Notes under the pieces: generated by a model
What the model was told of the DNA's origin: nothing
The model's database searches: none
The model's input: the letters and a program-made list of their open reading frames with translations, nothing else
Shown: piece after piece, positions 21,817-58,800 of the stretch
Layout of the letters: each line of letters opens with the position of its first letter
Numbering within the stretch: position 1 is the first letter of the stretch
Source: a phage
Assembly: GCA_011939005.1 (NCBI GenBank)
Contig: GCA_011939005.1_4858.1
Direction: 5' to 3' (one strand)
Length of the DNA: 64,000 nucleotides
Position numbers and translations under genes: made by a program

Positions 21817-21831
21817 TTAGCGCTCCGTCAA

Positions 21832-22131: not shown

Positions 22132-22229
22132 CAGGTGTTACCTTTTTGCAGTTCTCGTACATAAGGTTTGGGTGATACGTAAAAGACTTACTATGTAGCC
22201 CAATCCCTTATATATTCGAGGTTGATAGA
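22132..22229. promoter_or_regulatory. divergent promoter region
   Basis: 98-bp AT-rich gap between divergently transcribed genes. Confidence 0.35.
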
Positions 22230-22985: not shown

Positions 22986-23040
22986 AAAGTAAGCAGTACC
23001 CACTCCCCTTACGGGAGTGGGTAGGCTTTATTTTATTTGC
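22985..23040. terminator. bidirectional rho-independent terminator
   Basis: Stem tacccactccc / gggagtgggta (22997-23023) flanked by A-run and ggctttattttatttgc. Confidence 0.7.
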
Positions 23041-23956: not shown

Positions 23957-23985
23957 TTAATACTCCTTTAGATTAATGGTCGATT

Positions 23986-24020
23986 AAAATAAAACTACGG
24001 ACACCCCGAAGAGTGTCCGT
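23986..24020 (-). terminator. rho-independent terminator
   Basis: Stem acggacac / gtgtccgt (23997-24020) with A-run 23986-23995. Confidence 0.55.
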
Positions 24021-24024
24021 TTAA

Positions 24025-25532: not shown

Positions 25533-25904
25533 CTAGTTGGTTGCCGGCCACACCCCTGGCGATGGGATTGCATCGTATCCACGCCATTTCTTAATGGCAA
25601 CAAGGCTAGTGCCTGGGGAGCCGTCTAAATCGAAACCGACGGTTGCAACCACATCAACTTCGGTTTCTAAGTTAGAGTGGCCGATCGGAGAGAGGTGGGA
25701 GAAGCTGACGACTTTACCGCCCTGGATGGCGGTATCTCGAACTATACGAGCCATCTGTCTTATTTCTTGAGAAACTGGGCCGCGTAGGGTGGTTACCCGC
25801 GACGATAACGTCAACCAGTTTTCGCTCTCGGGTGCGACTATGTACAGAATAGTCCCTTCTTTAAAGTATTGTTTAACCAGTGTTTCAAATTCGTCTTGCG
25901 TCAT
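25533..25904 (-). CDS. hypothetical protein
   Basis: 123-aa ORF, ATG with RBS aaggag. Confidence 0.5.
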   Translation of the reverse strand: MTQDEFETLVKQYFKEGTILYIVAPESENWLTLSSRVTTLRGPVSQEIRQMARIVRDTAIQGGKVVSFSHLSPIGHSNLETEVDVVATVGFDLDGSPGTSLVAIKKWRGYDAIPSPGVWPATN

Positions 25905-34375: not shown

Positions 34376-34969
34376 TTACGCTTCGGCCTCAAAGAACGGC
34401 TGGTTCGGTACCACTGCATATTCGAGCACGAAAAGATGTTCTGGGGCATCTTCTGCTCGCCACAGTTTGTGACACGTTGCCAGTTTTTCCAGGATGGTCA
34501 ACCAGCTGAGCTGGCAGAAAGCACGGTCGCCGAAGAACAGTTTCTGCAGTGCAATCGACACATCCATATACGCCTGTTTGAAGTCGAGTTCTTTATCGTA
34601 ACCCGCCGACTGTCGCCACGTCAGCACGAAACCTGCTTCGGTTTCGTTAATTGCTGGACGTAAACCACAAATCCACATCAGCGCCAGATTAACGTTCCAG
34701 TCGAATTCGATACCTTCGTCTTCGTCATCACCAAACGCCGCGTTTAACGCATCGTAGAAACCGTGGTTCTCTGCGAACCATTCGCCATACTCAACGTATA
34801 CCGGTGCTTCGACAGCTTCCCCATCGACTTCACCGATAGGACGCTCTACATAGTTCGGGTTGGTTTGAACGTGTTCCGCACCCGCGCGAATTAATTCGTA
34901 GACATCTTTGGCGGTGATTTGTGCGGCTGTTTTAAGACCTGGATACCAGGGGCGTGTTACGAGTGTCAA
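34376..34969 (-). CDS. hypothetical protein (apparent TTG start)
   Basis: 197 aa; no in-frame ATG/GTG near the 5' end; TTG at 34969 has strong RBS aaggag and overlaps upstream stop by 4 nt. Confidence 0.5.
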   Translation of the reverse strand: MTLVTRPWYPGLKTAAQITAKDVYELIRAGAEHVQTNPNYVERPIGEVDGEAVEAPVYVEYGEWFAENHGFYDALNAAFGDDEDEGIEFDWNVNLALMWICGLRPAINETEAGFVLTWRQSAGYDKELDFKQAYMDVSIALQKLFFGDRAFCQLSWLTILEKLATCHKLWRAEDAPEHLFVLEYAVVPNQPFFEAEA

Positions 34970-35688
34970 AGCAATGCTCCTTTCATGATAGTGTTATTTG
35001 CCAGTAGTGTACCGGCCGCAGGTGATATTTTGGTGTACAGCGTATCCCAGATTTTCTGAAGCTCAGCGACGCGTTGGTCGCGGTCTTCCTTCGCAAAAGC
35101 AAGCTGACGTGTTTCAGCTTTCGGTGGCGTCATTTTCGCACCGTAGAATGCTGCGTCTTTTCGGTAGCTGGCCATCCAGCGTTTCCCGACCGATGATTTC
35201 TTTTTAATCATCGCAACAGCAGCGCTCTCACCGAAGCGGTAGCCTAATGCGATTTCGGCTGTGCTCGGCTTGCGTTTGAGTTGTTTTGTCAGATGATCCT
35301 CGATGTGTTTCATGTAAACAGCAGCAAGCTGTACAGCATATTTCGGTTTATTAAGGTCTGCGTTCTTTGGGATGTTAAGTTGTTTCCCATACAGACGTAT
35401 CATGGAGCGTTTAGTGCCTGTCGTCATTTGGACAACACTACTAGCACTGCTCGATTTATTCTTACCCACGTTTTTATTAAAACGGGATTCGCGGTAAATG
35501 GTGGTCGCAAGCATCCCGGCATGTACACCTTGCTTTTGAGATGCAGAGACGATGAGAGGTTTAATCTCATTGAACTGGTCCTGGATAAGGACGAATTCTT
35601 TTTGGTGTTTGTTACTGGTGGTCTGGTAAGAAGCGTTGCTGTTGAATGTGGTCACTGCTACCAGAAGAAATAAAATGGTGCGAAACAT
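34966..35688 (-). CDS. secreted lytic transglycosylase-like protein (candidate endolysin)
   Basis: 240 aa; N-terminal signal peptide MFRTILFLLVAVTTFNSNA; ESRFNKNVGKNKSSSASSVVQMTTGT aligns with the SLT motif of the large virion protein at 1-4578. Confidence 0.55.
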   Translation of the reverse strand: MFRTILFLLVAVTTFNSNASYQTTSNKHQKEFVLIQDQFNEIKPLIVSASQKQGVHAGMLATTIYRESRFNKNVGKNKSSSASSVVQMTTGTKRSMIRLYGKQLNIPKNADLNKPKYAVQLAAVYMKHIEDHLTKQLKRKPSTAEIALGYRFGESAAVAMIKKKSSVGKRWMASYRKDAAFYGAKMTPPKAETRQLAFAKEDRDQRVAELQKIWDTLYTKISPAAGTLLANNTIMKGALL

Positions 35689-35779
35689 GGATGTATCTCC
35701 AAACGGATTTATACTTTTCCGTTCCCAATCCGGGAAGACGGCGCGGACGGCATTGTGCTCCTTTGTAATGTGCCCTGAT

Positions 35780-35791
35780 GATAATATCTAT
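35780..35791. promoter_or_regulatory. conserved motif GATAATATCTAT (third copy)
   Basis: Exact 12-mer also at 26688-26699; overlaps the stop codon of the gene at 35788-36288 and lies upstream of the secreted SLT gene. Confidence 0.35.
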
Positions 35792-36288
35792 TTGAAACTT
35801 TTTGGGATGATTTTCTCTGCTTCCCTCAGCAGGGTGTCCGGTAAATAGAATCGATAAGTCTGCTCCGTGTGCTGTAGTCTTTTCTGTAAGTGTATAAAGA
35901 TTTCCAATCGCTCATGGTAACGTAACCAACCGTTAGCCATCCCTAGGGGCGGTATCGCAATCCCTCCTTCTAAGTCTTCCCCTAGTCGCGCCAGCGCATC
36001 AATGCCGGACGTGACATAGTAAATCTGCGATTTATAGCGAAAATGGGTTTTAGTAGGAAGGAGTATTACCCCTTCCTCAGGATAACAATAGACCTCACCG
36101 ATAACGATTTGCTCTTTACGACATTTCTGGCGATAGTCATTATAAAGCGATGGGAAGCGTTCTCGGCACGCCAAAGCAATGCCCCTTCCCATTGCACCAA
36201 CACAGTTAACTGTAACGACCTTGAAGCGCTCAGGCGCGTTAAACAGGTCGTGGGAGATAATAGCCTCGTCGATCAGTTCTAGTGACAT
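35788..36288 (-). CDS. putative macro-domain (ADP-ribose-binding/processing) protein
   Basis: 166 aa; VVTVNCVGAMGRGIALACRER resembles the macro N-terminal Gly-rich motif and IAIPPLGMANGWL resembles the C-terminal phosphate-binding loop. Motif-level only. Confidence 0.45.
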   Translation of the reverse strand: MSLELIDEAIISHDLFNAPERFKVVTVNCVGAMGRGIALACRERFPSLYNDYRQKCRKEQIVIGEVYCYPEEGVILLPTKTHFRYKSQIYYVTSGIDALARLGEDLEGGIAIPPLGMANGWLRYHERLEIFIHLQKRLQHTEQTYRFYLPDTLLREAEKIIPKSFK

Positions 36289-36910: not shown

Positions 36911-36928
36911 TTTAATGCTCCTTTAGAT

Positions 36929-37447
36929 TTAATCAATCTCGCGTTTAGGGCTCCTGTGAAACTTCACTTCAGGATTATCCTTAAATGTTTCCCAGATAAG
37001 GGACGCACCACCAAGCTCTTTGGTTTTCGTGGTGCGCAAGTGTGAGTCGCCGAGCATAACAGCACAACGTCCTTTTGCCATATACTTTTTAATTTTTTCA
37101 ACCATTTTAGCTTCACGAATATAAAAAGAACGGCTAAAGTTTACAGCCATTCCCTTTTTATCCTTGATATCTTTAGCGTAGGTTGCATCGCTCCAGTCAT
37201 CGATCCCAATAGCAGGGATGCCGAGTTTCTTAGCCAACTCCAGCCCCATGGGCCCAATAGAGTACATCTTCTCCTTTAATGCCTTATCTTGCGCTTTTGC
37301 AGTGTGATATTCATACGGCCCCAGTTCTTCACACAGTAAAAAATCGTATGGTTTTTTCCGATGGTTATCGATGATCGCCCATTCAACACGATTACGATCG
37401 GCCGTGGTATGAATTTCCCCATATATGTCAACACGAATGTCCGTCAT
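36929..37447 (-). CDS. hypothetical protein
   Basis: 172-aa ORF, ATG start. Confidence 0.5.
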   Translation of the reverse strand: MTDIRVDIYGEIHTTADRNRVEWAIIDNHRKKPYDFLLCEELGPYEYHTAKAQDKALKEKMYSIGPMGLELAKKLGIPAIGIDDWSDATYAKDIKDKKGMAVNFSRSFYIREAKMVEKIKKYMAKGRCAVMLGDSHLRTTKTKELGGASLIWETFKDNPEVKFHRSPKREID

Positions 37448-37698
37448 TTTAATTCCTCAAAAACTATAGGCACCGGCAGCGTACCAAGCGCTGCTTTAAT
37501 ACACGTACTCAGCGGAGTATCATCGAACGCAACACGACCGATAGTACCCACGTTGATGTGTTTTGGATTTACGGGTAAGAACTCCTTCGCCCGTTCGTAC
37601 TCAGCCCAACAGACATCGGTGTTTAAAGCTGAAAACCCAGGACGGTGAAACATAAATAGCACTCCTCGCGTAAAAATACCCCACTCATAGTGAGGCAT
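37444..37698 (-). CDS. hypothetical protein
   Basis: 84-aa ORF, ATG start, ATGA-coupled to downstream gene. Confidence 0.45.
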   Translation of the reverse strand: MPHYEWGIFTRGVLFMFHRPGFSALNTDVCWAEYERAKEFLPVNPKHINVGTIGRVAFDDTPLSTCIKAALGTLPVPIVFEELK

Positions 37699-37723: not shown

Positions 37724-38212
37724 CTATGCTACCGCAGTCCTTAAAGGTTCATCTGCTTCCGCAGGAACCTGCTTCGTAAATTCAAGCCATTGTCCGTCGG
37801 TAGAGACTGTCTTGTCAAAACCGCGAGCGGTAAAGAACGCAATACCAGCTTCCTGGCAAGCGTATATTCCCCCATGCGCATTGGTGAACTGTTCGTTCAC
37901 TTCAAGCGCATCAAAAATCTGCGTCATCGTTTTACGACGGCGTGCCATTTCAGACACGAACATCGTACGAATCTTCAGAACCCCAGCGATTACGCGATAC
38001 AAACAGTAACCAACAGGGGTACCCCCTTCCAGAGCAACACAAGCACGGTTCCCCGCCAACAGTTTCTCCAGAGTGAGGTTCGGAATCTCACCTTTTTCGA
38101 TATGGAGTATGGTACGTTGGTGGTTCAGAAATTTATAATGCAGCCCCAACAGCTGTTTATTTTGTGCTTCCGTTAAATCTGAAGATGAGGAAAGAATGAC
38201 AATTTCGGCCAT
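37724..38212 (-). CDS. hypothetical protein
   Basis: Track start 38239 is GTG without RBS; ATG at 38212 has RBS agga. Confidence 0.5.
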   Translation of the reverse strand: MAEIVILSSSSDLTEAQNKQLLGLHYKFLNHQRTILHIEKGEIPNLTLEKLLAGNRACVALEGGTPVGYCLYRVIAGVLKIRTMFVSEMARRRKTMTQIFDALEVNEQFTNAHGGIYACQEAGIAFFTARGFDKTVSTDGQWLEFTKQVPAEADEPLRTAVA

Positions 38213-38655
38213 GAGCTGAATTCCTAAGTGAGCTTTCACCTGCGATGAAAGCGAGTAACGAAGAATTGCGTTTGTGTTTTCTTAAGTTTACCGGTAAAGC
38301 TTAGCGGTGTATACCGCTGCAGGTAAAGACCAGTTCTCTATCGGAACCGTGTCTTTGATCAACAACGTCGTTGAAAACGCTGCGATGCTGAGGTAACCTT
38401 CCGTCGCCACATTCGCTCATGGCGCTTCTGATTACCACGCCAGTCTTCCCCGACTGTACGTGAAACTGCAAAATCATCCGGCCCGCAGACTTCCGCGATG
38501 TCTGCTAGAAGGTTCTTTGAAGACCCTATAGCCATCCCCGCGCTCGAAAGAACGATACGCCGGGTTGACACGGCCGCCCCTGAACCCACGACCACGGGAT
38601 CAGAGACTGTTTCACTGTTACATGATACTTCTCCCACTTCGTAATTACCCTCCTG

Positions 38656-38763
38656 TTAAAACCAACCTTGCATCAATGCAAGGATTGCGCCTAGGGCGTA
38701 TGCGCCCGCTCCTAGTATCAGGCTACAGACGATACACCCAACCCTTTTCACTAAAATAACCAT
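38656..38763 (-). CDS. tiny hydrophobic peptide (35 aa)
   Basis: Hand-translated MVILVKRVGCIVCSLILGAGAYALGAILALMQGWF; below ORF-track size cutoff; overlaps next tiny ORF (ATG inside the upstream stop region). Confidence 0.3.
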   Translation of the reverse strand: MVILVKRVGCIVCSLILGAGAYALGAILALMQGWF

Positions 38764-38882
38764 GTTGCTACAAACGCTCCGATTGCGCAAATGATAAGCG
38801 TGATACCAACATCTGTCCATGTGGCACCGTCATACGCACCTGTTGCAATCATGGCTGCGTTGACACTATTCACGACTGTCAT
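38751..38882 (-). CDS. tiny hydrophobic peptide (43 aa)
   Basis: Hand-translated MTVVNSVNAAMIATGAYDGATWTDVGITLIICAIGAFVATWLF; below ORF-track size cutoff. Confidence 0.3.
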   Translation of the reverse strand: MTVVNSVNAAMIATGAYDGATWTDVGITLIICAIGAFVATWLF

Positions 38883-39069
38883 AAGCCGGGTCCCTTAAAC
38901 GCGGGGGCTTGCTCCACAGATTACCGAAGTAAACCCCTTCTAAGAACACCAAAACAACTAAGCCCCAAAAGGCAGGCGTAGCGCGAGACATGAAAATACC
39001 GAGTAGCACCACAGTGTGCATTACCACAACTGCCCAAAACTTTAAACGACCAGGTTTACGTCTTGCCAT
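38866..39069 (-). CDS. small membrane protein
   Basis: Track start 39114 is GTG; ATG at 39069 has RBS aaggatgg. Two hydrophobic helices. Confidence 0.4.
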   Translation of the reverse strand: MARRKPGRLKFWAVVVMHTVVLLGIFMSRATPAFWGLVVLVFLEGVYFGNLWSKPPRLRDPAYDSRE

Positions 39070-39156
39070 GGAATGCCCATCCTTTCGTGCGGATAATCCA
39101 ACCCCAGGCACCACGAATCAACCACAGTGCAATACCGGTTAATACGATACCTTCAA

Positions 39157-39348
39157 TCATGTCCGTTCTCCTATATCTCGCCACTCACAACGCGTGTCGA
39201 ACAGACGTTCTTTAAGAGCAGCAGCTAAATAAACGACCGCAGCGATAACCACTACGGTTGCACAAAAGGAGAGGTACAGTACCATCACAACAAACTGAAG
39301 GAACTGAAAACCCCACCAAGCCCATAAGCGCCAACCTTTATGATGCAT
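39157..39348 (-). CDS. small membrane protein
   Basis: 63 aa, Trp-rich N-terminus and one hydrophobic helix (VVMVLYLSFCATVVVIAAVVYLAAAL); start overlaps the stop of the Rad50-like gene. Confidence 0.45.
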   Translation of the reverse strand: MHHKGWRLWAWWGFQFLQFVVMVLYLSFCATVVVIAAVVYLAAALKERLFDTRCEWRDIGERT

Positions 39349-41848
39349 ATTTGATTATTACCCCTTCGTTATACACCGGTGGAAGCGTTACACCTTCTGG
39401 TTCCACGACACAGTAGGTGGCTTCGTTAAGTTTAGAATGAACTTCCGCTTCATGCGAAACGACCAGCAATTGAGAAAACTCTCCCGACAACGCCAACGAT
39501 TTAATGAAGTTAACTAATCGGTTTTTGTGTTCTTCATCCATGCCTTCAGATGGTTCATCCAATAACAAAGGATAATTTTGTAAACCAAGTGCTTTATACG
39601 CCGTTAAACGAAACATCATGTTGAAAATGATACGCTGTGCTTTTGAACCTTTCTTCACGTCAGGCACCAGTTCTTCATGGTCTTTTAATCGCACTGGGAA
39701 TGTATAATCCAAATCCCCGTCGGTTAGATCGCATGGAATAACCTGCATCGGATATGCCCACACCATTTCGATATACCGATTCATTAAATCCATGATGCGG
39801 GTAATCGCAGCATAAAAGTAACGACGCAATAATCCTTTTTCGGGTGAGACGGCATTGATAATCAATCTGGCATGATGGTGTTCTTTGAGCAACTCAGCTT
39901 GCTCTTTTTCCAGTTCCGCTAAACGTGCAATAGCCCCTTCCATTTGACGAAACCGTTCACGAGCTGAAGTATACGCATCGAGCTTCGCTTCGCGTCGGTT
40001 TAACAACTCGCGAACCACGACGTTGTTAACGGAGATGTTCATTTCCGATACCAGATGTTCGTAGCCCTTTTGGAAACGTTCGATTGCTTCTTTGGTTTGT
40101 TGCAGTTGGGTGGTTTCGCGTTCCAGCTCATTGGCTTGTCTGCGGTATTCTATCAGTCGTCGGTTAGCCCCGTCCAGTTGTGAACGGATATGTTCAATTT
40201 TCTGGCTCAGCGCACCATCAACGTTACCTACTGCAGCAACAGCCTCTTGCCATTCCCGTTCCGCTGTTGCAAGCTTCGCCGATTGACGCAGATACATCAT
40301 GGCCGAATCTAACTCTTCAGTAAAGGCACGTGCAATGGCACCGTAACGATCCCGCGCCGTGGTGAAGATATCCAGCTCCTGCAGTTTACGGAAAAACAAA
40401 CCGATAACGGGATGATTGGAATACGACATGACGATTTCGCGAATCGTACGTAAGCTACGGACGTCCTCTTCAATCTCTTTGCGGTCACGCAAAAGACTAT
40501 CCATTTCGTCTTTCAGCTGTTTTTTCCAACCTTCATTATCGTTGATGGCCTTTTCAATTTCAGGTAACGACTTACGAATCCCAGGACGGAAACGGTGGTT
40601 ACACTGTGGACAATCAACTTCTGCAGTTTCTAAGAAGTGTTGACGGTCGTGGTATAAACCGTGTAGCACATTCTCACAACGTTGCAACTTTTCAGATAGA
40701 CCCGCAGAGGTTAAATCCATACCCTGTAAACGCTTCTCTAACGCTCCCAGGCGCTCTGTTGTCTTTAACTGGTCCAGATGCATGGACAACGGTAAATTCC
40801 AGTTACAGGCGTCGTTTAACGCGTTCTGAATGCTATCCACGTCGATGCGGGTACCTTCAAACAGAGCCGGGAACATCCAGTTCTGTTGGAATGTTGCCAG
40901 TTCCTGTTTTAAGCTGTCGATTGTTTGTTTTAGACCGGTATGGTTGCGCATCAGATACGCTTGACGCGACTCCTCATCCAGTAGCTGTGACAACTCTTTA
41001 TTGTACATGTTGCATTCAGTTTCAGCAGAGGCAGCTTGCTCGCGCCAGGCAACCACACGACTTTGAAACTCGTTAATCAGTTCGTCAGAAGGCAGAACGC
41101 CATAACGTTCCATAATGAGTTTTACAGCCGGTTGCAACGAAGCAATGCGTTTCCGGATACTATCAACCGAAACGGCGTTATCTAAACCGGGTCTCGCTTC
41201 AATGGTGCGGTTTAGTTCCTGAAGCTCAACGTCCAGTTCTTTCAAACGAACTTCCAAACGTGCACGATCTTCTTCATCGTCAACGACGCGCATTTTTGCT
41301 TCGCCGATTTTTCGTCCGGTGTGCTCAATGGCCCCACTTAAACTGGAAGCGAGTTTACGCAGACGACGATAACAACCAACAACGTACGTCAGATCAGATT
41401 CTGACATTAACGTAAACCATTTACGACGAACTTCAGTGGTGGCGTCTGTTAATAAGGTCTCACCATTAATTAACTCTTTGATTTCTTTGGTGATTCCGGT
41501 TAATTGCTCCACCATGGAGTTGTAAACTTTAGCGTTTACTGAATCTACGATGGAAACACCTTTAGTGATGTTGAAGATACTACAAGACAAAGAAGACCCA
41601 CGTCGCAGGACTTCAAACTTAAGACGGTCGTCCCCAACTAACGCGTAGTTAGTGTAGGAACCACCTTCACGGAATTCTGATTTTGCTGGAGCTAAGGGGA
41701 GAAAAACAGATAGGAGGCTTGTTTTACCGCAGCCGTTGCCACCGAGGATGATGGTAACGGTTGACTTAAGGGTGAAATCAAACGTTTCGATTTCATGTAA
41801 CCCCATGCCGGTAAATCCTTTCAAAATGATACGTTCGACCTTGAGCAT
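39338..41848 (-). CDS. Rad50/SbcC-family ABC-type ATPase with coiled coil and zinc hook
   Basis: 836 aa; Walker A ILGGNGCGKTS; long Glu/Leu/Arg-rich central region; CxxC hook DCPQC; C-terminal Walker B LLLDEPSEGMD and H-loop VVSHEAE. Confidence 0.8.
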   Translation of the reverse strand: MLKVERIILKGFTGMGLHEIETFDFTLKSTVTIILGGNGCGKTSLLSVFLPLAPAKSEFREGGSYTNYALVGDDRLKFEVLRRGSSLSCSIFNITKGVSIVDSVNAKVYNSMVEQLTGITKEIKELINGETLLTDATTEVRRKWFTLMSESDLTYVVGCYRRLRKLASSLSGAIEHTGRKIGEAKMRVVDDEEDRARLEVRLKELDVELQELNRTIEARPGLDNAVSVDSIRKRIASLQPAVKLIMERYGVLPSDELINEFQSRVVAWREQAASAETECNMYNKELSQLLDEESRQAYLMRNHTGLKQTIDSLKQELATFQQNWMFPALFEGTRIDVDSIQNALNDACNWNLPLSMHLDQLKTTERLGALEKRLQGMDLTSAGLSEKLQRCENVLHGLYHDRQHFLETAEVDCPQCNHRFRPGIRKSLPEIEKAINDNEGWKKQLKDEMDSLLRDRKEIEEDVRSLRTIREIVMSYSNHPVIGLFFRKLQELDIFTTARDRYGAIARAFTEELDSAMMYLRQSAKLATAEREWQEAVAAVGNVDGALSQKIEHIRSQLDGANRRLIEYRRQANELERETTQLQQTKEAIERFQKGYEHLVSEMNISVNNVVVRELLNRREAKLDAYTSARERFRQMEGAIARLAELEKEQAELLKEHHHARLIINAVSPEKGLLRRYFYAAITRIMDLMNRYIEMVWAYPMQVIPCDLTDGDLDYTFPVRLKDHEELVPDVKKGSKAQRIIFNMMFRLTAYKALGLQNYPLLLDEPSEGMDEEHKNRLVNFIKSLALSGEFSQLLVVSHEAEVHSKLNEATYCVVEPEGVTLPPVYNEGVIIKYAS

Positions 41849-41901: not shown

Positions 41902-41934
41902 AAAAAAGAAGAAATGGAACCCCGAAGGGTTCCA
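41902..41934 (-). terminator. rho-independent terminator
   Basis: Stem tggaaccc / gggttcca with loop cgaa; A-rich run 41901-41914. Confidence 0.55.
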
Positions 41935-41944
41935 GAGAGGAGAG

Positions 41945-42571
41945 TTACTGCGGAATAAACTTACGGTGTCCGAGCGATTCCCAAAAACTGTCGGTGCGCT
42001 CTTTGGTTAATTCATACCACGCACGCCCGGCATCAGAATCGACAACCTTTAACGTTTCAGTAAGCAGGAATTTGAACAGTTCAGCGCTACGACCGGGTGC
42101 CACGCCGTCGAGATATATCGGGATTAAATAACCGGTTTTGATTTCTTCGTACGGTTGCGATTGGTGCTGGCCAACAACCCAGGCATCAGCAGCGCTACCG
42201 ACCAATGTGGTGTTTACAGTTAACTCATCAGAAATCCAGTTAACTGTATCAGCCATTATTGAATCGCCATTGACGTAGAAGAAAACTAAACGTTTAGGTT
42301 GCTCCACCGAACCAGCCAAATCTAATGCAGTAGTTCCGGTGAAGATCGTATTATTGGGATTACGTTCTGCAATAGGTAGAGCAAACCACGCTTCGAGCTG
42401 CCCCCAGCTACGCGGCAGTGCTTCTTTAAACCACTTCACCAATCGCGGGTATTCCAGAAACCCTTCTACCTCTTCTTCCATCAGATTGATACGCAGTTTG
42501 GTATCCTGACGATTCGCTTTCTGACACGTCACCATGTCGTCGATGAAACGAATCAGGGTAATCTCGTTCAT
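41945..42571 (-). CDS. hypothetical protein
   Basis: 208-aa ORF, ATG with RBS gaagga; no metallophosphatase motifs (not an obvious Mre11/SbcD). Confidence 0.55.
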   Translation of the reverse strand: MNEITLIRFIDDMVTCQKANRQDTKLRINLMEEEVEGFLEYPRLVKWFKEALPRSWGQLEAWFALPIAERNPNNTIFTGTTALDLAGSVEQPKRLVFFYVNGDSIMADTVNWISDELTVNTTLVGSAADAWVVGQHQSQPYEEIKTGYLIPIYLDGVAPGRSAELFKFLLTETLKVVDSDAGRAWYELTKERTDSFWESLGHRKFIPQ

Positions 42572-43255: not shown

Positions 43256-43639
43256 TTACTGGTCGAGCGCTATTGAACCACGCACTTCGCCTTGTTGTTC
43301 AATAACCAGGAGGCGCTGTTTGGTTTTCGTATTGTAAGCGAGCGACGCGCGAAGCGTCGGGTCGCACGTTATTGTCTCTACCGGCACAATCTCTTGTGCC
43401 TTTGAGTTCAACAGAAAGTAGTAACCTGCCGGACAAGTTTCCTCGCCCTTTGCGTGGACTAGGATGTACTCGTCGTGCCGGCTGACTTCTTCACATCTAC
43501 CATCGTCGCCAGTACAGACTTCGAATGAAGGCGGGTTGTACTGATACGGTGTGCCCGGCAGTAAATCTTCTACGCTGGTTGTAGCTGAAGCGGAAGCGGT
43601 CAAGAACACCGCCGCGATAATACCCATAAATCCACGCAT
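43256..43639 (-). CDS. secreted Cys-containing protein (paralog family member 1)
   Basis: 127 aa; signal peptide MRGFMGIIAAVFLTASASA; motif ETCPAGYY; ATG with RBS aaggaaa. Confidence 0.5.
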   Translation of the reverse strand: MRGFMGIIAAVFLTASASATTSVEDLLPGTPYQYNPPSFEVCTGDDGRCEEVSRHDEYILVHAKGEETCPAGYYFLLNSKAQEIVPVETITCDPTLRASLAYNTKTKQRLLVIEQQGEVRGSIALDQ

Positions 43640-43652
43640 GTTGTTTCCTTAC

Positions 43653-44063
43653 TTAAAAGTCGAGTTTATTGATGCCTACGTTTTTCTTAATCGTAGGGTC
43701 GTACATGATAACCGTCAGGGCATTGTCGCCTGGGTCGCGAGTAAACTCGGCAACGGCTTCACCACTGCAGGCTTGGTTATCATTATAGTTCATGGATTCG
43801 GCTTGCCCGGTTGCCATGTTAATAACCCCGTATTCAGGGTCGCCACATGCGACACCGCCCATCGTTTTCACTAACAGGTAACGGTTGTTATCGGACATCG
43901 CAACGATCTGGCAGCTACCGCCTTGTACGTCAGAGTTCTGGCACCAGAACTGTCCGCCGTATTCGTGATCGTTAACAACTTTTGGTAACTCGATACTTCC
44001 AGCGCGAGCGAAGAAGCTAATGGCCAGAGTAGCAAGTAAAACTGGTAATAAAAAATGTTTCAT
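43653..44063 (-). CDS. secreted Cys-containing protein (paralog family member 2)
   Basis: 136 aa; signal peptide MKHFLLPVLLATLAISFFARA; motif VACGDPEY; RBS gaggtg. Confidence 0.5.
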   Translation of the reverse strand: MKHFLLPVLLATLAISFFARAGSIELPKVVNDHEYGGQFWCQNSDVQGGSCQIVAMSDNNRYLLVKTMGGVACGDPEYGVINMATGQAESMNYNDNQACSGEAVAEFTRDPGDNALTVIMYDPTIKKNVGINKLDF

Positions 44064-44085
44064 AATAGCACCTCAATTTTTTGAG

Positions 44086-44577
44086 TTATTCTGAATAGTC
44101 GATTGTTTTGATGGTTTCCATACCGTAGTACATAGCGATGGAGGCCAGAGTTTTGGTATCAGGTCGCTGTACAAAACCGGCCCTGAAATCTTTGCTGCAA
44201 ATTTTCTCCACTGATAGTTCATCACGATTAGGGATAAGCCATAACGCGTCACCGTTGTGACGGTCGACTGCACCCCACCAACCACCTGGGCAATCTTTAT
44301 CGCCCGGACGGTGTACGATAGCGACACGTCCGTTGAAGGATATGTCAACTACACGACACTGTTTCTTAAGCAGCTTACGCGCATTGCACCAGAACGGCTT
44401 ATCATTAAGATTGATGGTGCGGGTATATGCTGGAATGCTGCCGTTAATACTGCCCTGGAACCCGCTGAATTCGTCAGCGCGTGCCTTAGAAATCCGTAGC
44501 CCAACAACAACTGCCATCAACAGCACAGTAAAAAGCACCACCTTAATCAGGTGGTGATTAACGTTATTGCATTTCAT
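44086..44577 (-). CDS. secreted Cys-containing protein (paralog family member 3)
   Basis: ATG at 44577 (RBS ggaga) gives N-terminus MKCNNVNHHLIKVVLFTVLLMAVVVGL; motif KDCPGGWW. Confidence 0.5.
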   Translation of the reverse strand: MKCNNVNHHLIKVVLFTVLLMAVVVGLRISKARADEFSGFQGSINGSIPAYTRTINLNDKPFWCNARKLLKKQCRVVDISFNGRVAIVHRPGDKDCPGGWWGAVDRHNGDALWLIPNRDELSVEKICSKDFRAGFVQRPDTKTLASIAMYYGMETIKTIDYSE

Positions 44578-44965
44578 TTTTGATATCTCCACGAATGAGG
44601 GTGATGCGACCAACGAGCACATCGTTGTGATAAAAACTCACAGCAACCAGATCTGGCAATTCCAACGGCGATACGCTGACCGAAGTGACTTTTGGTTGAT
44701 CGCACGATATGTCGATTAATCGCTGATACATTTTCAGTTTCTTATCAGCGATAACCAGCCCTGTGCAGTTCTTACCATCCGTCAGTTTGTAGATTTGTAA
44801 CTGTTCGACCTCACGCATCAGTTCCGGTTTTTCATTCGGTGCAATGCCATAATCCGAATCAGCTGATGTGTATTCAGTCACGTCTGGCTTATCGAAAGCA
44901 TAAGTTGCTGCGATACCACATGCGGCCAGAACTACTACTGCTTGTAAGAACTTCTTGATAGTCAT
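44564..44965 (-). CDS. putative lipoprotein (paralog family member 4)
   Basis: 133 aa; signal peptide with lipobox VVLAACG; motif KNCTGLVI. Confidence 0.5.
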   Translation of the reverse strand: MTIKKFLQAVVVLAACGIAATYAFDKPDVTEYTSADSDYGIAPNEKPELMREVEQLQIYKLTDGKNCTGLVIADKKLKMYQRLIDISCDQPKVTSVSVSPLELPDLVAVSFYHNDVLVGRITLIRGDIKNEMQ

Positions 44966-52014: not shown

Positions 52015-52081
52015 TGGCTGTTTCCTCTAAGGATTCGGGTCATAGTATGAACTCGACGCCCTCAGAGAAAAGGAGTGTAAA
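52015..52081. promoter_or_regulatory. divergent promoter region of the tail-fibre operon
   Basis: 67-bp gap between divergently oriented genes; contains TAGTATGA, also present upstream of the plus-strand gene at 49341. Confidence 0.35.
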
Positions 52082-55000
52082 ATGGCTGTCGTCCCTGACC
52101 CGCACTATCAAGAACCGGGGAATATGCAGACCGGTGAAGCGGTAACGCCGATCGGTACTAAGTACCGGATGCTGTTCCCCGCACACGCCCCCTTTTATAC
52201 CACATCCCTGGTGGTCAAGAGTGGCGGCAAGAAATTAACATTAGGTGATGATTACGTCATCACCCATGCGTACGTTACGGGCATGGCACGCACTGGCCAT
52301 GTTTGTCACGGCGGCGTGTGGATTACCAACCCGAAATATCAGAGTGGCTTTACACTCGATTACCACGCAATTGGCATCGGTGAAGCCACTGCAGAAATGA
52401 TCGCCGCAGAACGAGAAGCGAATAAAGATCGCTATCCCGTGGACTGCCAATGGGATAACGTCATTGGGGATTTATATTTCCCACCGGTCGATATTAAGTT
52501 CGATTGGGAAAACTGGCGTGGCGAATCTGAGTTGATGGAAGCCATTGTTGCGGTTGGTGCTAAGCTCGGTGAAGCGATCAGTCGCGTTGACCCGATTGCT
52601 CGTAACACGTTAGACCTTCAATATCGCGCCGGCGTCACGCTTATCACGTCCGAGCAGTATGCGACGTACGACGGTACTGGCGGCTACACGTATAACGCGT
52701 CACGTCGTCGTTATTCGTTATCTTACCAGAACACGACATTCGATGCGTATTCGTTAGCGGTAAAATACCGTTTACCGAGCATTCCACCGGAAACAACGTT
52801 GAACCCAGGCGAGTTGATCGATTGGATGCTCTGTTACGCAAACGGTGGGACAAGTATCCTGCGTCTTCAGTTGAAGCAACGCGCGATTTATCTTACCTTA
52901 ACGACAGCGATTGGTTCCGGTTCGTCCAATTACAGCTATACGTTGACGACTGGCCTGACTGATACCGAGTTGGCGGGTGAGGTTGAGTTTAGCGTGGTCA
53001 GACGCGAAGGTAACGGCGTTTACGACATCACCGTTAAAACAAGCAAGCAAACCGTTAACTACAGCTTTAACGTTGACAACCCACCGAGCGAATTTGCACC
53101 AGGGTATCAGAAAACTGATGTCGCAAAATGGTTGAAGTTTAAATCGGGCGTCAACCTAAACTGGTGGGCAGGTGAGAACGATTACGTCCAGATTCGTTCA
53201 TTACCAGGCGCACCGGCACCTGACGTTAACAATGACGTGTACCAGCTGCTGGTAAAATATCACCAGATTGTCGATAAACTGTACCGTGATGCACCGGCAC
53301 ACACACACGTGCCGCGCAAGGATAACCCGCATCGCGATTCGTGGGGCGCAATCCGTGCTTTGGAGAATAACGGTATTGCTTCGGACGCGACACTGGTATA
53401 CGGAAAAACGCAACCGCAGCTGACAGATTACGTTAACAATCTGTTGCCGAAACTGTCAACGCTGGCGAATAAGCTTTTACGTTTACCGGCGGCTGCACAG
53501 TCTATCATCGGCACGTTCGGCATGAAGCCTGGCCTGACTTCAATAACGTCAGCAGTGGGTACCGATGAGTCTGAAGGCGTGGGTGCACAATTCACGGTTG
53601 ACCCGAGGGTTATCCGTTTTATTGGCCGCGATTCGCAAACCGTTAACGCCGGGAACAATCCGATTACATGGCAAGGTGGGGCTAACCAACTCATCCTTTA
53701 TCCGGATTCCCGTGGATTGGAGTTCAACGGTAAGAAACTGTTGGACCCTACTACGGTCGGGCCGTACCTGCCGGGTAACGAATCAGGTGGTGATGGACTG
53801 TTTTACGGAACATCCACAGCTACTGTAACCATTAACGGTAACGGTATTCAGTCTGTTCCGTTCATTTGTACCTTTGTTCCACCGGAGTCCGATGACCTTG
53901 GCCTGATGGCTGTCCGTTTGTTGGCTACTGAATTCGGCGATCGTGAGGACTTGGCCGCAACGCCGGCACTCATCAAGAAATTGGATCAGCAGTTTACGGG
54001 CAAGTTGGTTGCCGTTAAATCGTACATCAACGACATGCCACTGACGAGTTCTATTTACATCGATAAAACTAACTTCGGCTTATCGAACGTACAGAACATC
54101 CCAGATGTACAATTGCCGATTTCCCCGCTCCAACAAGCTGAGCTGGACAAGTATGCAGTCGTCGGTCACAAACACACTTCTGCCGCGTTCGGGATTAAGC
54201 GTGCAACAACGACGGAGTTCGGTTTAGTACAGTTCGGCACCGCGGTTGACGATGCCACTCTGGCATTAGACGGTGGTGAGGTCATCCGACAGGCGGACGC
54301 CATCACAGAGATAGAGAAGGTTGCGAAGACAGTCGACTCTGGTGCTTCAATCAACATTATTCGTTACGGTTTACCCGGCACGGATATCATTGAAAACGGC
54401 ATCACTTACACCGACTGGATGGTTACTATTAAAGCGAACGATTATTTCGTTGGTCGCGAGTACAAAGTACCTCTCTCCACATTTAACTTGGCGGAGCTAT
54501 TCCCAGCGACGCACGAAGATGCTGAGTTTGGCGTGTATGTTGACGCGGCGGGCGATGACGGCAAGTACATTATCTACGAAAATCCAAACACGGCAGAAAC
54601 TGAGACGATGACCAAAATAGGTTCCATCATCACCAGTGAAACCGGTGTGGTTTTTGTAGAAATCCGCAACGTGACGCGTTTAGGTGAGTTCCGTGAATTA
54701 GGCGAGCATATCGAGGATGATAACGCCCATATTCGTCGGGGCATGACGCAAGCTGAATTCGGATTTACTTACGGTACGGGCGGGCCTGTGTGGTCCACGG
54801 GCGCACCGGGTACAAAACGTATAGATGCTGATTGGCGTTACGCGCAGGCTAGCGGCTATACGCCTATGTTGAAAGCGGACTACGATCCGGCTGCTGATAA
54901 ATGGACGTTTAAAACAACCAGTTTATCTGTAACCGATTATCGTTTTGTCCACAACACGTTCCCGATGTTCCAGAATAACGGCATTACCGCAACGTGGACA

Positions 55001-55795
55001 CCTTTAACCGCAACAGCGGACAGTGTGCTAGAAACGGTAATTGGGTGTTGTCATCACTCGGCCACGTTCATGCACCGTATTTCTGTACTCGTCGCACGCA
55101 CCGCAGGACGTATTACCACTCCAGGCGGTGTGAGCACGTATGCGGGAATCGCGGTTAACTACGGACGTGCTGCGCAGGTTGTTATTGGCTTGAACGGCGT
55201 TACTGGTTCCGGCCATGACTGGACGGCACTTAATCCATCGGTGCGTTTCAGCCACGCGCGAACAGCGGACGGTATTTCGTTCGTGGGAACGATTAACATC
55301 GATTCCAAAACGATTAACTTTGAGCTGACGCTAACCGCGACAACAAAGACGCTGAAATACACCTTGCAGTCGACCGGCGAGTCGTGGACTGAGGATTTGT
55401 CTACCCGTCTCCGTCCTGACTATATCGACTTGACGAAACTGATTACCGATCCGAGTACGCCGATTTATCACGGCGTGGGTGGTTTGTTTAGTTCCGACAC
55501 AGAAGCGCGTTTGACCTACGCTAACCTGAACACGATGCCGACAAAGAATCGTTATTACGCCACGTTCCTTGACTATGCGATTAACTATTCCGGCTTAAAC
55601 CGCGCAAGATTCTTTACTGGCGTGGTGGATGCAGGTTCAACGATTAATGAGATGAACAGCGCGATGAGCAACTATTCATACAGTTCGTTCCGACCAGTGG
55701 ATACAGGTAAAATTCCACTGGTGGCACACCCATCCAAGATGATGACGTTCAATCCGAAAAACACGTCAGCTCGAACACTTATTATTCGTGATTAA
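52082..55795 (+). CDS. long tail-fibre protein (1237 aa)
   Basis: ATG with RBS aaggag; fibre-repeat motif HTSAAFGIKRATTTEFGLVQFGTA of the T4 gp34/gp37 type; Thr/Gly/Asn-rich beta-type composition. Confidence 0.75.
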   Translation: MAVVPDPHYQEPGNMQTGEAVTPIGTKYRMLFPAHAPFYTTSLVVKSGGKKLTLGDDYVITHAYVTGMARTGHVCHGGVWITNPKYQSGFTLDYHAIGIGEATAEMIAAEREANKDRYPVDCQWDNVIGDLYFPPVDIKFDWENWRGESELMEAIVAVGAKLGEAISRVDPIARNTLDLQYRAGVTLITSEQYATYDGTGGYTYNASRRRYSLSYQNTTFDAYSLAVKYRLPSIPPETTLNPGELIDWMLCYANGGTSILRLQLKQRAIYLTLTTAIGSGSSNYSYTLTTGLTDTELAGEVEFSVVRREGNGVYDITVKTSKQTVNYSFNVDNPPSEFAPGYQKTDVAKWLKFKSGVNLNWWAGENDYVQIRSLPGAPAPDVNNDVYQLLVKYHQIVDKLYRDAPAHTHVPRKDNPHRDSWGAIRALENNGIASDATLVYGKTQPQLTDYVNNLLPKLSTLANKLLRLPAAAQSIIGTFGMKPGLTSITSAVGTDESEGVGAQFTVDPRVIRFIGRDSQTVNAGNNPITWQGGANQLILYPDSRGLEFNGKKLLDPTTVGPYLPGNESGGDGLFYGTSTATVTINGNGIQSVPFICTFVPPESDDLGLMAVRLLATEFGDREDLAATPALIKKLDQQFTGKLVAVKSYINDMPLTSSIYIDKTNFGLSNVQNIPDVQLPISPLQQAELDKYAVVGHKHTSAAFGIKRATTTEFGLVQFGTAVDDATLALDGGEVIRQADAITEIEKVAKTVDSGASINIIRYGLPGTDIIENGITYTDWMVTIKANDYFVGREYKVPLSTFNLAELFPATHEDAEFGVYVDAAGDDGKYIIYENPNTAETETMTKIGSIITSETGVVFVEIRNVTRLGEFRELGEHIEDDNAHIRRGMTQAEFGFTYGTGGPVWSTGAPGTKRIDADWRYAQASGYTPMLKADYDPAADKWTFKTTSLSVTDYRFVHNTFPMFQNNGITATWTPLTATADSVLETVIGCCHHSATFMHRISVLVARTAGRITTPGGVSTYAGIAVNYGRAAQVVIGLNGVTGSGHDWTALNPSVRFSHARTADGISFVGTINIDSKTINFELTLTATTKTLKYTLQSTGESWTEDLSTRLRPDYIDLTKLITDPSTPIYHGVGGLFSSDTEARLTYANLNTMPTKNRYYATFLDYAINYSGLNRARFFTGVVDAGSTINEMNSAMSNYSYSSFRPVDTGKIPLVAHPSKMMTFNPKNTSARTLIIRD

Positions 55796-55807: not shown

Positions 55808-58800
55808 ATGAAAACGTATCCTTACGATCCTCGGGGTGTAAATCCTGAGTGTCACTTCATCGAGGAACGTATCATCGACTCCGACAATCCTAACGATCGG
55901 GTGGTGATGCTAGATCATCGCCCGTTTTTCGAAGGATTGGTGGTAAGGCTCGCCGGCTCGTCCATACCGCTTACCCGCGGGACGGACTATGAGCTGGAGT
56001 ATGCTTTAACACCGTTGGACGACTCGGTGACGACCCCGGTGTTTTGCGGGGTGCATCTTATTAACCCTAAACTGCGTGGTGCGGTGGTCTTTGAAGGCCA
56101 GATGCTCGGGGGTACGTTTTACAGTGGTTTGATTGAGATGTTGGATGAGCTAGTTAAGGCACTCAACAATCCAACGGCTGCAGATTGGCTGCTTTTAGGT
56201 AATCGACCTTCCCTGTACCCAGCCACCCCTGCAGCGGTGGCTTGGTCAGACATGCTGAATAAAAAGTATGTTGCCTCTGCAGTGCATGATGTGGAGTTAG
56301 ATGCCGGGGCGGCCAACGAGCAGATTCGTGAAAAGCTTACTGAGCTGAAAGATGCGGTTTTGGGCTTAGGAACTGAAATCGCCGCATTTAACTACCCCGG
56401 ACACATTGCGTCGACTAACCCTCATGGGACTACCGCGGCGCAGGCCGGTGCGCATCCTGTCAACCTGAAAACGCCAGATACTTTCCTGGCGTATGGAAAG
56501 ACGTTGCGTCAGTTAACCAGCGAGGTCCGTGCACTGGGTCTGCAACAATCGGATATCGACAAGTACATTTCTAAATGGGTATCGAAAGAATCCAAAGGGG
56601 TGTTTAATGCGACGATATCCGGTACTCGTGCCCTGTTCCGTTCTCCTGCTGGTGAATCCGAAATTGTGTTCTCTGCTGAGGCATTCACTCTTAAATCTAA
56701 TGGCTCTGTTGTGTTGGCGTGTGGGTATGCCGACACTACTGGAACCGTCCGGTTTATGGAGTGGAAAGCAGGCATCAATACATTACGTATTGAGTCGACT
56801 GGCAGTGCCTTGGGGATGGATAAGCTGACGCTTAATGGTACGACGTTACTGACCACAACTGCTCTCATGGGCTATCAACAAGACCCTGGTACCGGCGGTG
56901 GTACCGTTGACCCGGATGACAACAAACTGTACATTAGCGGGGTGAACGGCATCACTTTCACGGGTAAAGGGTCAAAAGCCGATCCCGTCACCGGGAAGGT
57001 CACAGCCAAACCCGCGACGACCTCTGAACCAGGCGTTGTGACGCTGACTGATAAGCCGAGCGATGTAGTCAAAGGGCAAGCAGCCACCCCGTCGGCGCTT
57101 TTGCCGTATGAGGGCGACCTGTCTTCGTACGTCAGGAAGACAACGCTGCTGAATAACCAGCCGATGAACACTGGTAGTCGAACGCTGACGAAAAAGGATT
57201 TAGGTTTAGACTTGGCTGATAACACAGCTGACGTCGATAAACCACTTTCTGATGCGTTGGCAGAAGCAGTTACCGGTCTTAGTGATAAAGGTCACCATCA
57301 CAACTTCGCTGATTTACAGATTCCAACAGCCTCTCAAACTGTGCCAGGTATCGCACGATACTCTACCAACTTAAACGGCTTGGCGGATAATCGCGGCGTT
57401 ACCCCGAATGTTCTGAACGATCTGTCAAAACGTTTAGACGTAGTTGCAGCTGCGCTAGCAAACGCGAAAGAGGATTCCGTGACCGATTTTGCCGCTGTGC
57501 GTGGTAAGACTTGGACTGTGGGATCTACACGTACCACCCTCGCCGTAACGGATTTGAATTATTTCTATCTGTTAAATGGTGCACGTAAAGAGGGGACGGT
57601 ATCTGGTTCGATAGACCTGCAAACCACCCCGATGTTCCAGTGGTTCTCTCCAGATAACCGTATGGAAAGAACGTGGCAGAACGCGGTAATTAATATCGGT
57701 GACGGTATTGATTTTAGTGGGTTTGAGGTTGCCGTCCCGGAAACGAACTACGGTGCGCAGATTGGGTTAACGGCAACCGGCATGGGTGACTTATCGGTTG
57801 TTAACCTTTTAGCAAAAACGTGGGTTCGTTGCGATACAGGTAAACTACGTATTTGGGTTCGTGGCGGTGGTGCTGTTTCTGTTTATCTGGACGGTGTAAT
57901 TATCGGTGCGGGTATTACAGAAGCGGGGTATCTGGAGGCGACTGTCAAAGAGGGGTGGAAGCAACATTGCCTGGCGTTTCGTGCGGAATGTAACAATAGC
58001 GCGAAAGCAGCTGCTATACGCTTCACCATTTACGATGGTGATTACCCGGTTGCGGTGTCGGACAAAAACACCAAAGTTGCCCGCCTGCAGGAGTTTGTTA
58101 AGACCGCGAACGGTTTACGACATTATCTTTACGTGAACATGATAACCAACGCATTGTATTCACGTGCGGAACCCATTGTGGACACGGAAGGTATTAACCT
58201 GGAGCGTGGGTACATTGGTTACATTGATGTACCCGAGACGGGATTGGTTGCAGGTACGACTTACGAGTTTGAAACGACGTTTGATTTTGGCATGGCGTCC
58301 GAACTTAAACGGCACTTCGAAACACGTCTGGCGCACGGAGTGAGTAATGCCGACTGGTCGTTGACGGATAACCCAAAAATGTTACCGCTAAACAAAGTCG
58401 ATCCGTTGCCTAAACAGTGGCTTTATGCGTACCCTAATAGTCCAGTTTCTGGTAACCACTATATTCGATTAGACCGAGGGTTATTCGATTATAAATTTGA
58501 TAGTACCATTTCAAGCCTAGTGTTTGTTGGAGCGGTTGTCTCCACAGAAAGCGCATCACCGTACTGCTGGTTTACACCAAGCAACCCGAAAGAAAAAGGG
58601 ATGGCGACGTTTGAAGGTTCTGTGGTGGTCGATGTTGATTTGTCGGAAGCACAAACAGTTCGCGTTCGCGATATCACATTAAACTTCATGGCCCCGTCTG
58701 CAGATGATAAAAGCAAGACCAGGGTACTGAGATGGAGTGGCAATCGTCCAGAATTGAATTGTGGCTTCATCACGTCTCCTTATAACCAAGCAACTGGAGG

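Follow-up and report, generated by a model that had tools for sequence, protein, structure and literature searches.

The window, i.e. the whole 64-kb stretch of phage DNA that was analysed, carries on its minus strand an open reading frame of 836 codons with an ATG start (39338..41848), which encodes an SbcC/Rad50-like ABC ATPase and is orthologous to SPN3US gp186 and phiKZ ORF165. The translation contains a Walker A motif or P-loop (GGNGCGKT, aa 36-43, 41720..41743), a hook with the sequence VDCPQCNHRFRPG (aa 411-423, 40580..40618), a Walker B motif (PLLLDE, aa 760-765) that is followed by the D-loop region PSEGMDEE (together 39530..39571), and the SH of the H-loop (aa 798-799, 39452..39457), all on the minus strand. 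The CxxC of the hook reads CPQC (aa 413-416) and lies at the midpoint of the protein. Walker B and the D-loop region were also assigned by alignment with P. furiosus Rad50. The same alignment places GSKAQ (aa 734-738, minus strand, 39635..39649) opposite the SGGE of the archaeal protein, so that the position of the ABC signature, S-G-G-E/Q before Walker B, reads G-S-K-A-Q, with both glycines replaced. Judged from this alignment, GSKAQ is a variant form of the ABC signature.

The AlphaFold2 model of the ATPase (pLDDT 81) predicts a head that is split between the two ends of the chain and aligns to P. furiosus Rad50. The N-terminal half of the head contains Walker A, and the C-terminal half contains Walker B, the D-loop (DEE, 771-773), and the H-loop. 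Between them, long helices form an ascending arm with short breaks (aa 138-407, 40628..41437, minus strand) and a descending arm (aa 428-667, 39848..40567, minus strand); the coiled-coil nature of both arms was read from the helices of the model. The arms are joined by a short beta-hairpin (408-427) that carries the CPQC motif, so that a CxxC hairpin of about 20 residues forms the apex and a globular hinge of the SMC type is absent there.

All of these motifs are invariant among 17 homologues with identities down to 29%, and a homologue of the phiKZ type, which is 20% identical, also retains all of them except A737 of the signature; they are therefore not chance matches. The residues concerned are G36, N38, G39, G41, and K42 of Walker A, D764, E765, D771, and E772 of the Walker B and D-loop regions, the SH of the H-loop, and G734, S735, and Q738 of the signature. 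For the hook, C413, C416, F420, P422, and G423 are invariant and the pattern C-x-x-C-x-H-x-F-K/R-P-G is kept, likewise down to 20% identity. An earlier note on this DNA had described the protein as a Rad50/SbcC-like ATPase of 836 aa with Walker A, long arms, a CPQC hook, and C-terminal Walker B and H-loop motifs, a description that the translated motifs, the structure model, and the conservation bear out.

The sole strong family match of the ATPase was PHROG 77, “SbcC-like” (E 8.9e-96). The Rad50 proteins of P. furiosus and M. jannaschii were the top sequence matches in the PDB, and the top fold match of the model was the Rad50 of C. thermophilum in the MRN complex (E 4e-19). The scores remained below the cut-offs of Pfam (28.4 bits vs 40 for SMC_N, 19.5 vs 27 for AAA_23) and of the NCBIfam Rad50 models, for which values of 40-58 bits were obtained vs cut-offs of 700-1087 (e.g. 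57.6 vs 1087). By sequence, the ATPase is thus a very divergent member of the Rad50/SbcC family. Additional SMC-like ATPases were also matched in the fold and sequence searches, i.e. Smc5/6, MukB, and JetC, as well as LmuB in the PADLOC search (E 6e-20), and therefore the ATPase taken alone is not uniquely “Rad50”.

On the upstream side, the ATPase gene is preceded by a gene for a 208-aa protein (41945-42571), which has no Pfam match and falls into a PHROG without an assigned function. A terminator-like element, i.e. a GC-rich hairpin followed by a T tract (41915..41934, minus strand), was predicted by a consensus scan between this gene and the start of SbcC, suggesting that SbcC is not co-translated with the 208-aa gene. 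On the downstream side, a 63-aa, strongly hydrophobic protein is encoded on the same strand (39157..39348; phrog_16515, corresponding to SPN3US gp187). The ATG of this ORF overlaps the stop codon of SbcC (ATGCATCATAA), and the 63-aa protein may be coupled to SbcC. Four further tiny hydrophobic ORFs follow. A scan of the window for sigma-70 promoters yielded fewer sites than the shuffled controls, and neither tRNA genes nor Rfam families were found in it. SPN3US-like phages transcribe their genes with their own RNA polymerases.

Neither of the two neighbours is a metallophosphatase, in agreement with the earlier note. An HMM of the SbcD family did not match any of the 510 stop-to-stop ORFs of the 64-kb window (best E 2.9), and a tblastn search of the window with an SbcD protein also remained without a match (best E 0.14). 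Other nucleases near SbcC were considered as partners, namely a DEDD-type Rv2179c-like 3'-5' exonuclease and a protein with an RNase H domain; they are not phosphoesterases and were rejected.

The SbcC gene is 96-98% identical at the nucleotide level to that of SPN3US-like Salmonella jumbo phages (Seoulvirus). With SPN3US itself, the identity is 96.7% over the whole gene and the neighbours are the same, and in one relative, SPLA1a, collinearity with the window extends over about 42 kb. In closely related complete genomes, an SbcD homologue is encoded at a distance of about 90-150 kb from SbcC (92-147 kb). In SPN3US this is gp27 (21020-22168 of that genome), a protein of 382 aa with motifs of the Mre11 type that matches PHROG 100, SbcD-like, with an E value of 8.5e-64. 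The source genome of the window presumably encodes the same partner, as do its 96-98% identical relatives, at a locus beyond the 64 kb analysed.

A single-sequence PDB search with gp27 gave nothing useful, and the Pfam Metallophos score was sub-threshold (15.1 bits vs 21.5). Because of these two results the annotation alone was not trusted, and the identity of gp27 was tested with a profile of 27 sequences and a structure model. All five calcineurin-like phosphoesterase motifs could be located, i.e. I D22-x-H24 (DIH), II G57-D58, III G97-T-P-S-H101-D102, IV H180, and V G-H212-D-H214 (GHDH), and in the 27 homologues each of them is either invariant or conserved to at least 90%. Motif III, GTPSHD, is a variant of GNHD/E. 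The family profile matched T. maritima Mre11 (E 1e-12) over residues 2-355, which is nearly the full length, and E. coli SbcD (E 2e-6). With the AlphaFold2 model (pLDDT 90.6), the top Foldseek match was E. coli SbcD (7yzo_A, E 8.6e-14), and archaeal and human Mre11 came next; the 24 top matches were all SbcD or Mre11 proteins (E 8.6e-14 to 1e-7), and LpxH appeared after them. The model thus predicts that gp27 has the Mre11 fold, comprising the phosphoesterase core and the capping domain.

Homologues of both proteins were searched by tblastn in 50,697 phage records, and SbcC was found in 289 and SbcD in 288 of them. The counts per genus are equal in eight of the nine genera that are listed in both tables, the exception being Vibrio (22 vs 23), and the two genes are far apart in every genome among the matches listed for both. 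Based on the record totals, the counts per genus, and 17 records among the matches listed for both genes, SbcC and SbcD appear to co-occur near-perfectly across phages, at a ratio of nearly 1:1. The earlier note had proposed a profile search for phosphoesterases as well as a co-occurrence analysis, and had called the ATPase an orphan. The profile search remained without a match in the window and the partner was found in related genomes, and the presence of this distant Mre11/SbcD homologue tracks that of SbcC across about 289 phage records. The orphan view is thus contradicted. Of the two possibilities that the note had offered, the correct one is that of a recombination enzyme whose partner is encoded at a distance; the other, an SMC-like component of something else, did not gain support.

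Several of these features are already known for SPN3US since 2016. An amber mutant showed that gp186 is an essential SbcC subunit (Thomas et al. 2016, PMC5105663), and in the same study gp27 was named SbcD, its separation from the gene for gp186 was discussed, and so was the small 63-aa membrane protein downstream of gp186. In the literature on phiKZ, orf165 belongs to the core genome, its knock-down with ASO results in a phenotype, and it is free of transposon insertions. For jumbo phages, SbcC and SbcD have been described as “practically universally conserved” (PMC7824862). The gene of the window and phiKZ ORF165 are orthologous to the SbcC member of this known pair (gp186, with gp27 as SbcD, in SPN3US); the sequence divergence of the window gene from SPN3US is a few per cent and no functional difference was found.

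We regard it as very probable that the phage has an Mre11-Rad50-like complex of its own for the processing of DNA ends and that the gene encodes its ATPase subunit, which is of the SbcC/Rad50 type. Two copies of the ATPase would pair via their ATP-binding heads and via the CxxC hooks, which cap the helical arms of about 250 residues. A dimer of the nuclease of the Mre11/SbcD type (SPN3US gp27), which is encoded separately, would join this pair to clamp DNA ends in an ATP-dependent manner, and the nuclease would then cut or resect them. The processed ends would be passed on to the phage recombinase, thereby supporting recombination-dependent replication and the repair of the 240-kb genome. E. 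coli SbcCD and T4 gp46/gp47 are the models from which the physical association of gp186 and gp27, the binding of zinc, the biochemical activity, and a role in replication are inferred by analogy.

The similarities to E. coli SbcCD comprise the split ABC head, the antiparallel coiled coil, and the CxxC hook of the ATPase and the Mre11 phosphoesterase fold of the partner. In contrast, E. coli has a single sbcDC operon, whereas the genes of SPN3US-like phages are ~92-147 kb apart; the ATPase has 836 aa vs 1048 aa in E. coli (lengths from PMC5105663); and the signature GSKAQ and motif III of the partner, GTPSHD, differ from the E. coli proteins. The identities of the phage proteins to the solved SbcD/Mre11 and Rad50 chains are about 8-18%, and E. 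coli SbcC was absent among the Rad50-type matches listed. T4 gp46/gp47 are likewise a phage-encoded, essential pair of the Rad50/Mre11 type for recombination-dependent replication (PMC5105663), and a small membrane protein, gp47.1, is encoded nearby; however, the T4 genes are clustered. Similarity to gp46/gp47 at the BLAST level was not reported (PMC5105663), and neither T4 nor an obviously T4-like phage was among the 60 SbcC matches listed (E <= 1e-8). The archaeal and eukaryotic Rad50 proteins of P. furiosus and C. thermophilum are the best PDB matches and share the CxxC hook at the apex of the coiled coil, but the phage ATPase is far below the curated cut-offs, its arms are shorter than those of eukaryotic Rad50, and a third subunit of the Nbs1/Xrs2 type is missing.

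An addition to the proposed complex, not an alternative to it, is that it is tethered to the membrane or to the periphery of the phage nucleus by the downstream hydrophobic proteins, similar to a proposal for T4 gp47.1. This idea was raised before (PMC5105663), and the overlap of the 63-aa ORF with the SbcC stop and the series of tiny hydrophobic ORFs behind it are compatible with it. The same holds for Erwinia phage Phobos, in which a hydrophobic ORF of 63 aa likewise overlaps the stop of SbcC. However, similarity between the Phobos protein and that of the window was not detectable, a corresponding ORF is absent after SbcC in Vibrio phage pVp-JHP1101 and in the phiKZ-type phage SL2, and adjacency is weak functional evidence in these shuffled genomes. 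We consider tethering unlikely.

An alternative to the end-processing complex is that the ATPase acts alone, without SbcD, as an SMC-like organiser of DNA, e.g. by compacting or holding the large genome, either inside the phage nucleus or while it is packaged. The fold search also yielded Smc5/6, condensin, and MukB (E 1e-12 to 1e-16), SbcC and SbcD are never adjacent in the lineage among the matches listed, and the arms are longer than those of T4 gp46 (PMC5105663). Yet Rad50 is at the top of both the sequence and the fold matches, the apex is the CxxC hairpin of about 20 residues instead of a globular SMC hinge, a partner of the kleisin or MukEF type was not seen and there is no kleisin-like neighbour, and the near 1:1 co-occurrence with an Mre11/SbcD homologue also argues against it, so that we consider this reading very improbable. 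A sensor ATPase like LmuB of Lamassu, JetC of Wadjet, or RloC that acts in defence, counter-defence, or competition between phages instead of replication is hardly credible, because the PADLOC matches (LmuB, JetC, DndD, and PtuA) and the fold matches to LmuB and JetC structures reflect the head and coiled coil shared by the Rad50/SMC superfamily, effector or partner genes (LmuA/LmuC, JetABD, or an anticodon nuclease) are not found beside SbcC, the SbcD partner has no PADLOC match, and the gene is core and essential in a lytic phage family and co-occurs with Mre11/SbcD; this reading was dropped on the grounds of context, essentiality, and co-occurrence.

Genes that are linked in function are routinely scattered in the phiKZ-like lineage, and missing adjacency in these genomes is therefore not evidence for an orphan. 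The conserved separation of SbcC and SbcD and the tiny membrane-peptide ORFs at the SbcC stop could reflect a lineage-specific regulation or localisation of the complex in nucleus-forming jumbo phages, a view that we think is quite unlikely. If it were true, the ATPase and the nuclease might e.g. differ in the time or compartment of their synthesis, and assembly or tethering of the complex might take place at a membrane or the nuclear shell, which would confine nuclease activity to the places and times at which ends of phage DNA have to be processed. The SbcC/SbcD pair is among the few near-universal genes of jumbo phages, and its value as a discovery is small. Of specialist interest are the biochemistry of a very divergent Mre11-Rad50 pair, with GSKAQ and GTPSHD as variant motifs, and the site of the complex relative to the phage nucleus.

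The SbcC gene is an uninterrupted reading frame of 836 codons with an ATG start (window 39338-41848, minus strand). A re-check of the translation of this strand placed the Walker A motif GGNGCGKT at aa 36-43, the CPQC tetrad at aa 413-416, i.e. almost exactly at the midpoint of the protein, GSKAQ at aa 734-738, the Walker B motif PLLLDE at aa 760-765, followed by the acidic D-loop region, and SH at aa 798-799. In an alignment with PDB sequences, GSKAQ is the counterpart of the signature SGGE of P. furiosus Rad50. The AlphaFold2 model (17 homologues in the alignment, mean pLDDT 81) consists of a beta-rich N-terminal half of the head (aa 1-137), a long, interrupted first helical arm (aa 138-407), a short beta-hairpin with CPQC (aa 408-427), a long second helical arm (aa 428-667), and the C-terminal half of the head (aa 674-836). 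All catalytic residues and the extended hook pattern C-x-x-C-x-H-x-F-K/R-P-G are invariant among homologues down to 29% identity, and a phiKZ-type homologue (20% identity) has kept both, with the exception of the signature residue A737. Translation, alignment, and model show that an earlier note, written from the sequence alone, described this Rad50/SbcC-like ATPase accurately.

The same note had regarded the ATPase as an orphan, with no metallophosphatase as its neighbour. The latter point was borne out: phosphoesterase features are absent from both the 208-aa upstream protein and the 63-aa hydrophobic downstream protein. An SbcD-family HMM had no match among the 510 stop-to-stop ORFs of the window (best E 2.9). 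The other two nucleases of the window were rejected as partners, being a DEDD-type exonuclease and an RNase H-domain protein. A "UvsX-like recombinase" is annotated in the same window, about 18 kb from SbcC; Pfam gave no match to this protein.

In the jumbo phage SPN3US, a 382-aa protein annotated as "SbcD-like" (gp27) is encoded at 21020-22168. The label was not taken as given, because the Pfam Metallophos match was sub-threshold (E 0.032) and a PDB search with the single sequence was empty. The protein matches PHROG 100 (SbcD-like, E 8.5e-64), and its five phosphoesterase motifs, D22-x-H24, G57-D58, G97-T-P-S-H-D102, H180, and G-H212-D-H214, show either no variation or a conservation of at least 90% across 27 aligned homologues; motif III, GTPSHD, is a variant of GNHD/E. 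The family profile matched T. maritima Mre11 (E 1e-12, residues 2-355) as well as E. coli SbcD and P. furiosus Mre11. For the AlphaFold2 model (pLDDT 90.6), the top Foldseek match was E. coli SbcD (7yzo_A, E 8.6e-14), and the best 24 matches were all SbcD/Mre11 structures, with LpxH ranking after them. On either side, with its start and with its stop, the SbcD gene overlaps the adjacent gene (SPN3US NC_027402.1, 20362-23001 region); these two neighbours encode proteins of 224 aa and 278 aa (phrog_5171 and phrog_3229), which could be co-translated partners.

Co-occurrence was quantified by tblastn (E <= 1e-8) against 50,697 phage records, 289 of which contain an SbcC homologue and 288 an SbcD homologue. 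The numbers of records for SbcC and SbcD are 81 each for Pseudomonas phages, 62 each for Erwinia, 24 each for Salmonella, 22 and 23 for Vibrio, 21 each for Serratia, 19 each for Aeromonas, 16 each for Klebsiella, 13 each for Ralstonia, and 4 each for Burkholderia. Among the matches listed, the two genes are distant in all 17 records common to both searches. SbcC and SbcD are found, respectively, at 168.9 kb and 21.0 kb in SPN3US, 121.2 kb and 215.3 kb in phage 1252 (at 97.7% over the SbcC gene, one of the window's two nearest records), 164.4 kb and 20.2 kb in Phobos, 143.3 kb and 258.2 kb in the phiKZ-type phage PaZh_1, and 36.3 kb and 132.7 kb in pTD1. SbcC is an orphan only locally; at the genome level the orphan interpretation is refuted by an Mre11/SbcD homologue that is distant yet tracks with SbcC, an outcome which the note itself had set as its refutation.

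About 34 SPN3US-like jumbo phages of Salmonella and Escherichia (Seoulvirus, genomes of about 240 kb) match the SbcC gene with 96-98% nucleotide identity; the gene is the orthologue of SPN3US gp186. Phage SPLA1a is collinear with the window over about 42 kb (96.8% identity), except for three non-aligning stretches of about 0.2-1 kb. These are window 23039-24046 (about 1 kb), with a 307-aa ORF (23033-23956, minus strand; phrog_6160, no Pfam match), and the smaller stretches 36924-37467, containing a 172-aa ORF (phrog_14325), and 25662-25830. In OQ383623.1 and MT679221.1 (GenBank) the SbcC orthologue is wrongly labelled 'nuclease SbcCD subunit D', although it is the ATPase subunit. In several SPFM records both the SbcC and SbcD genes are frameshift-ridden, a sign of sequencing errors.

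The feature is real, and the whole SbcC/SbcD arrangement is already known from publication. In SPN3US, gp186 was identified as the SbcC subunit, homologous to phiKZ ORF165, and gp27 as the SbcD subunit (PMC5105663); an amber mutant showed gp186 to be essential (Thomas et al. 2016, PMC5105663). Iyer et al. 2021 (PMC7824862) count both subunits as "practically universally conserved" in jumbo phages, as they do few other proteins. The phiKZ gene orf165 belongs to the core genome, and antisense oligomers against it gave a knock-down phenotype (PMC12571901); it tolerates no transposon insertions (PMC12676376).

The family searches gave matches of very different strength. PHROG 77 ("SbcC-like subunit of palindrome specific endonuclease") matched with E 8.9e-96; the Pfam matches SMC_N, AAA_15, and AAA_23 were all sub-threshold, and the NCBIfam matches, archaeal Rad50 and an SMC-related family, were far under their cut-offs. 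Rad50 heads were the best PDB matches, both with the single sequence (E 8e-5) and with the family profile (E 1e-6), and C. thermophilum Rad50 (MRN complex) was the top Foldseek match of the model (E 4e-19), followed by Smc5/6, condensin, MukB, LmuB, and JetC. The matches of head and coiled coil assign the protein to the Rad50/SMC superfamily. A stand-alone SMC-like organiser is unlikely, as a hook takes the place of a hinge and SbcC co-occurs with the nuclease. A defence-type LmuB/JetC-like ATPase, in line with the PADLOC match to LmuB (E 6e-20), is unlikely in view of the gene context and the essentiality of gp186. The CxxC hairpin replacing the hinge, together with the SbcD partner, singles out Rad50/SbcC.

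Directly downstream of SbcC are five tiny hydrophobic ORFs of 63, 34, 67, 33, and 35 aa (window 38656-39348, minus strand). The start of the first (39157-39348) overlaps the SbcC stop (ATGCATCATAA), and most starts and stops of the five overlap the adjacent ORF. All five are intact in SPLA1a (88-100% aa identity); the annotation of relatives covers only two or three of them. In Phobos a 63-aa hydrophobic ORF likewise overlaps the SbcC stop, without sequence similarity to that of the window; more distant relatives have no such ORF after SbcC. The SPN3US counterpart, gp187, a transmembrane protein of 63 aa encoded immediately after gp186, has been compared with T4 gp47.1; the linker of T4 gp46 is about 300 residues shorter than that of gp186 (PMC5105663). 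A terminator-like hairpin lies between the 208-aa upstream gene and SbcC. The tiny ORFs, the 63-aa ORF of Phobos, and this hairpin are weak evidence for a tethering or timing mechanism specific to the lineage, which has a small probability. A further terminator-like hairpin (38666-38683) is located inside the 3' end of the last tiny ORF. The roughly 400 nt between this ORF and a GNAT acetyltransferase gene (37724-38239), i.e. about 38240-38655, are unannotated in SPLA1a and contain neither a convincing ORF nor an Rfam match; such a gap is unusually long for so dense a genome.

A macro-domain (Appr-1-p processing) gene lies downstream of SbcC in Phobos (44% SbcC identity) and pVp-JHP1101 (30%). 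The order SbcC, macro-domain gene, lytic transglycosylase (window 34966-36288, minus strand) is kept, the transglycosylase being seen in the window and in pVp-JHP1101; the SbcC/macro-domain order persists despite the scattering of SbcC and SbcD. A stretch of about 137 aa in a 240-aa transglycosylase-like protein (34966-35688, minus strand) recurs, at 25% identity and E 1e-5, in a large ORF that extends beyond the window start (1-4575, plus strand). Three consecutive, very large ORFs (52046-55792, 55808-59935, and 59974->64000, plus strand) are paralogous, with pairwise identities of about 22-23%; the annotation of relatives gives two as virion structural proteins and one as hypothetical, and all three are probably members of the paralogue family mentioned for SPN3US gp168. 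Four small proteins of 127-178 aa, whose N-termini resemble signal peptides, are encoded in a row at window 43256-44965 (minus strand); two of the four are weakly alike (26% over 89 aa, E 1e-5).

E. coli SbcCD and T4 gp46/gp47 are established systems that provide the analogy for an M2R2 complex. The most likely function of gp186 and gp27 would be to interact physically and form such a complex, with zinc bound at the hook. By this analogy, DNA ends would be clamped by gp186 heads engaged through ATP, the hook-joined arms would form a rod on closing, and cutting or resection of the end would follow, carried out by an active gp27 dimer. The ends so processed may serve as substrates for the phage recombinase, which would give the complex a role in replication.
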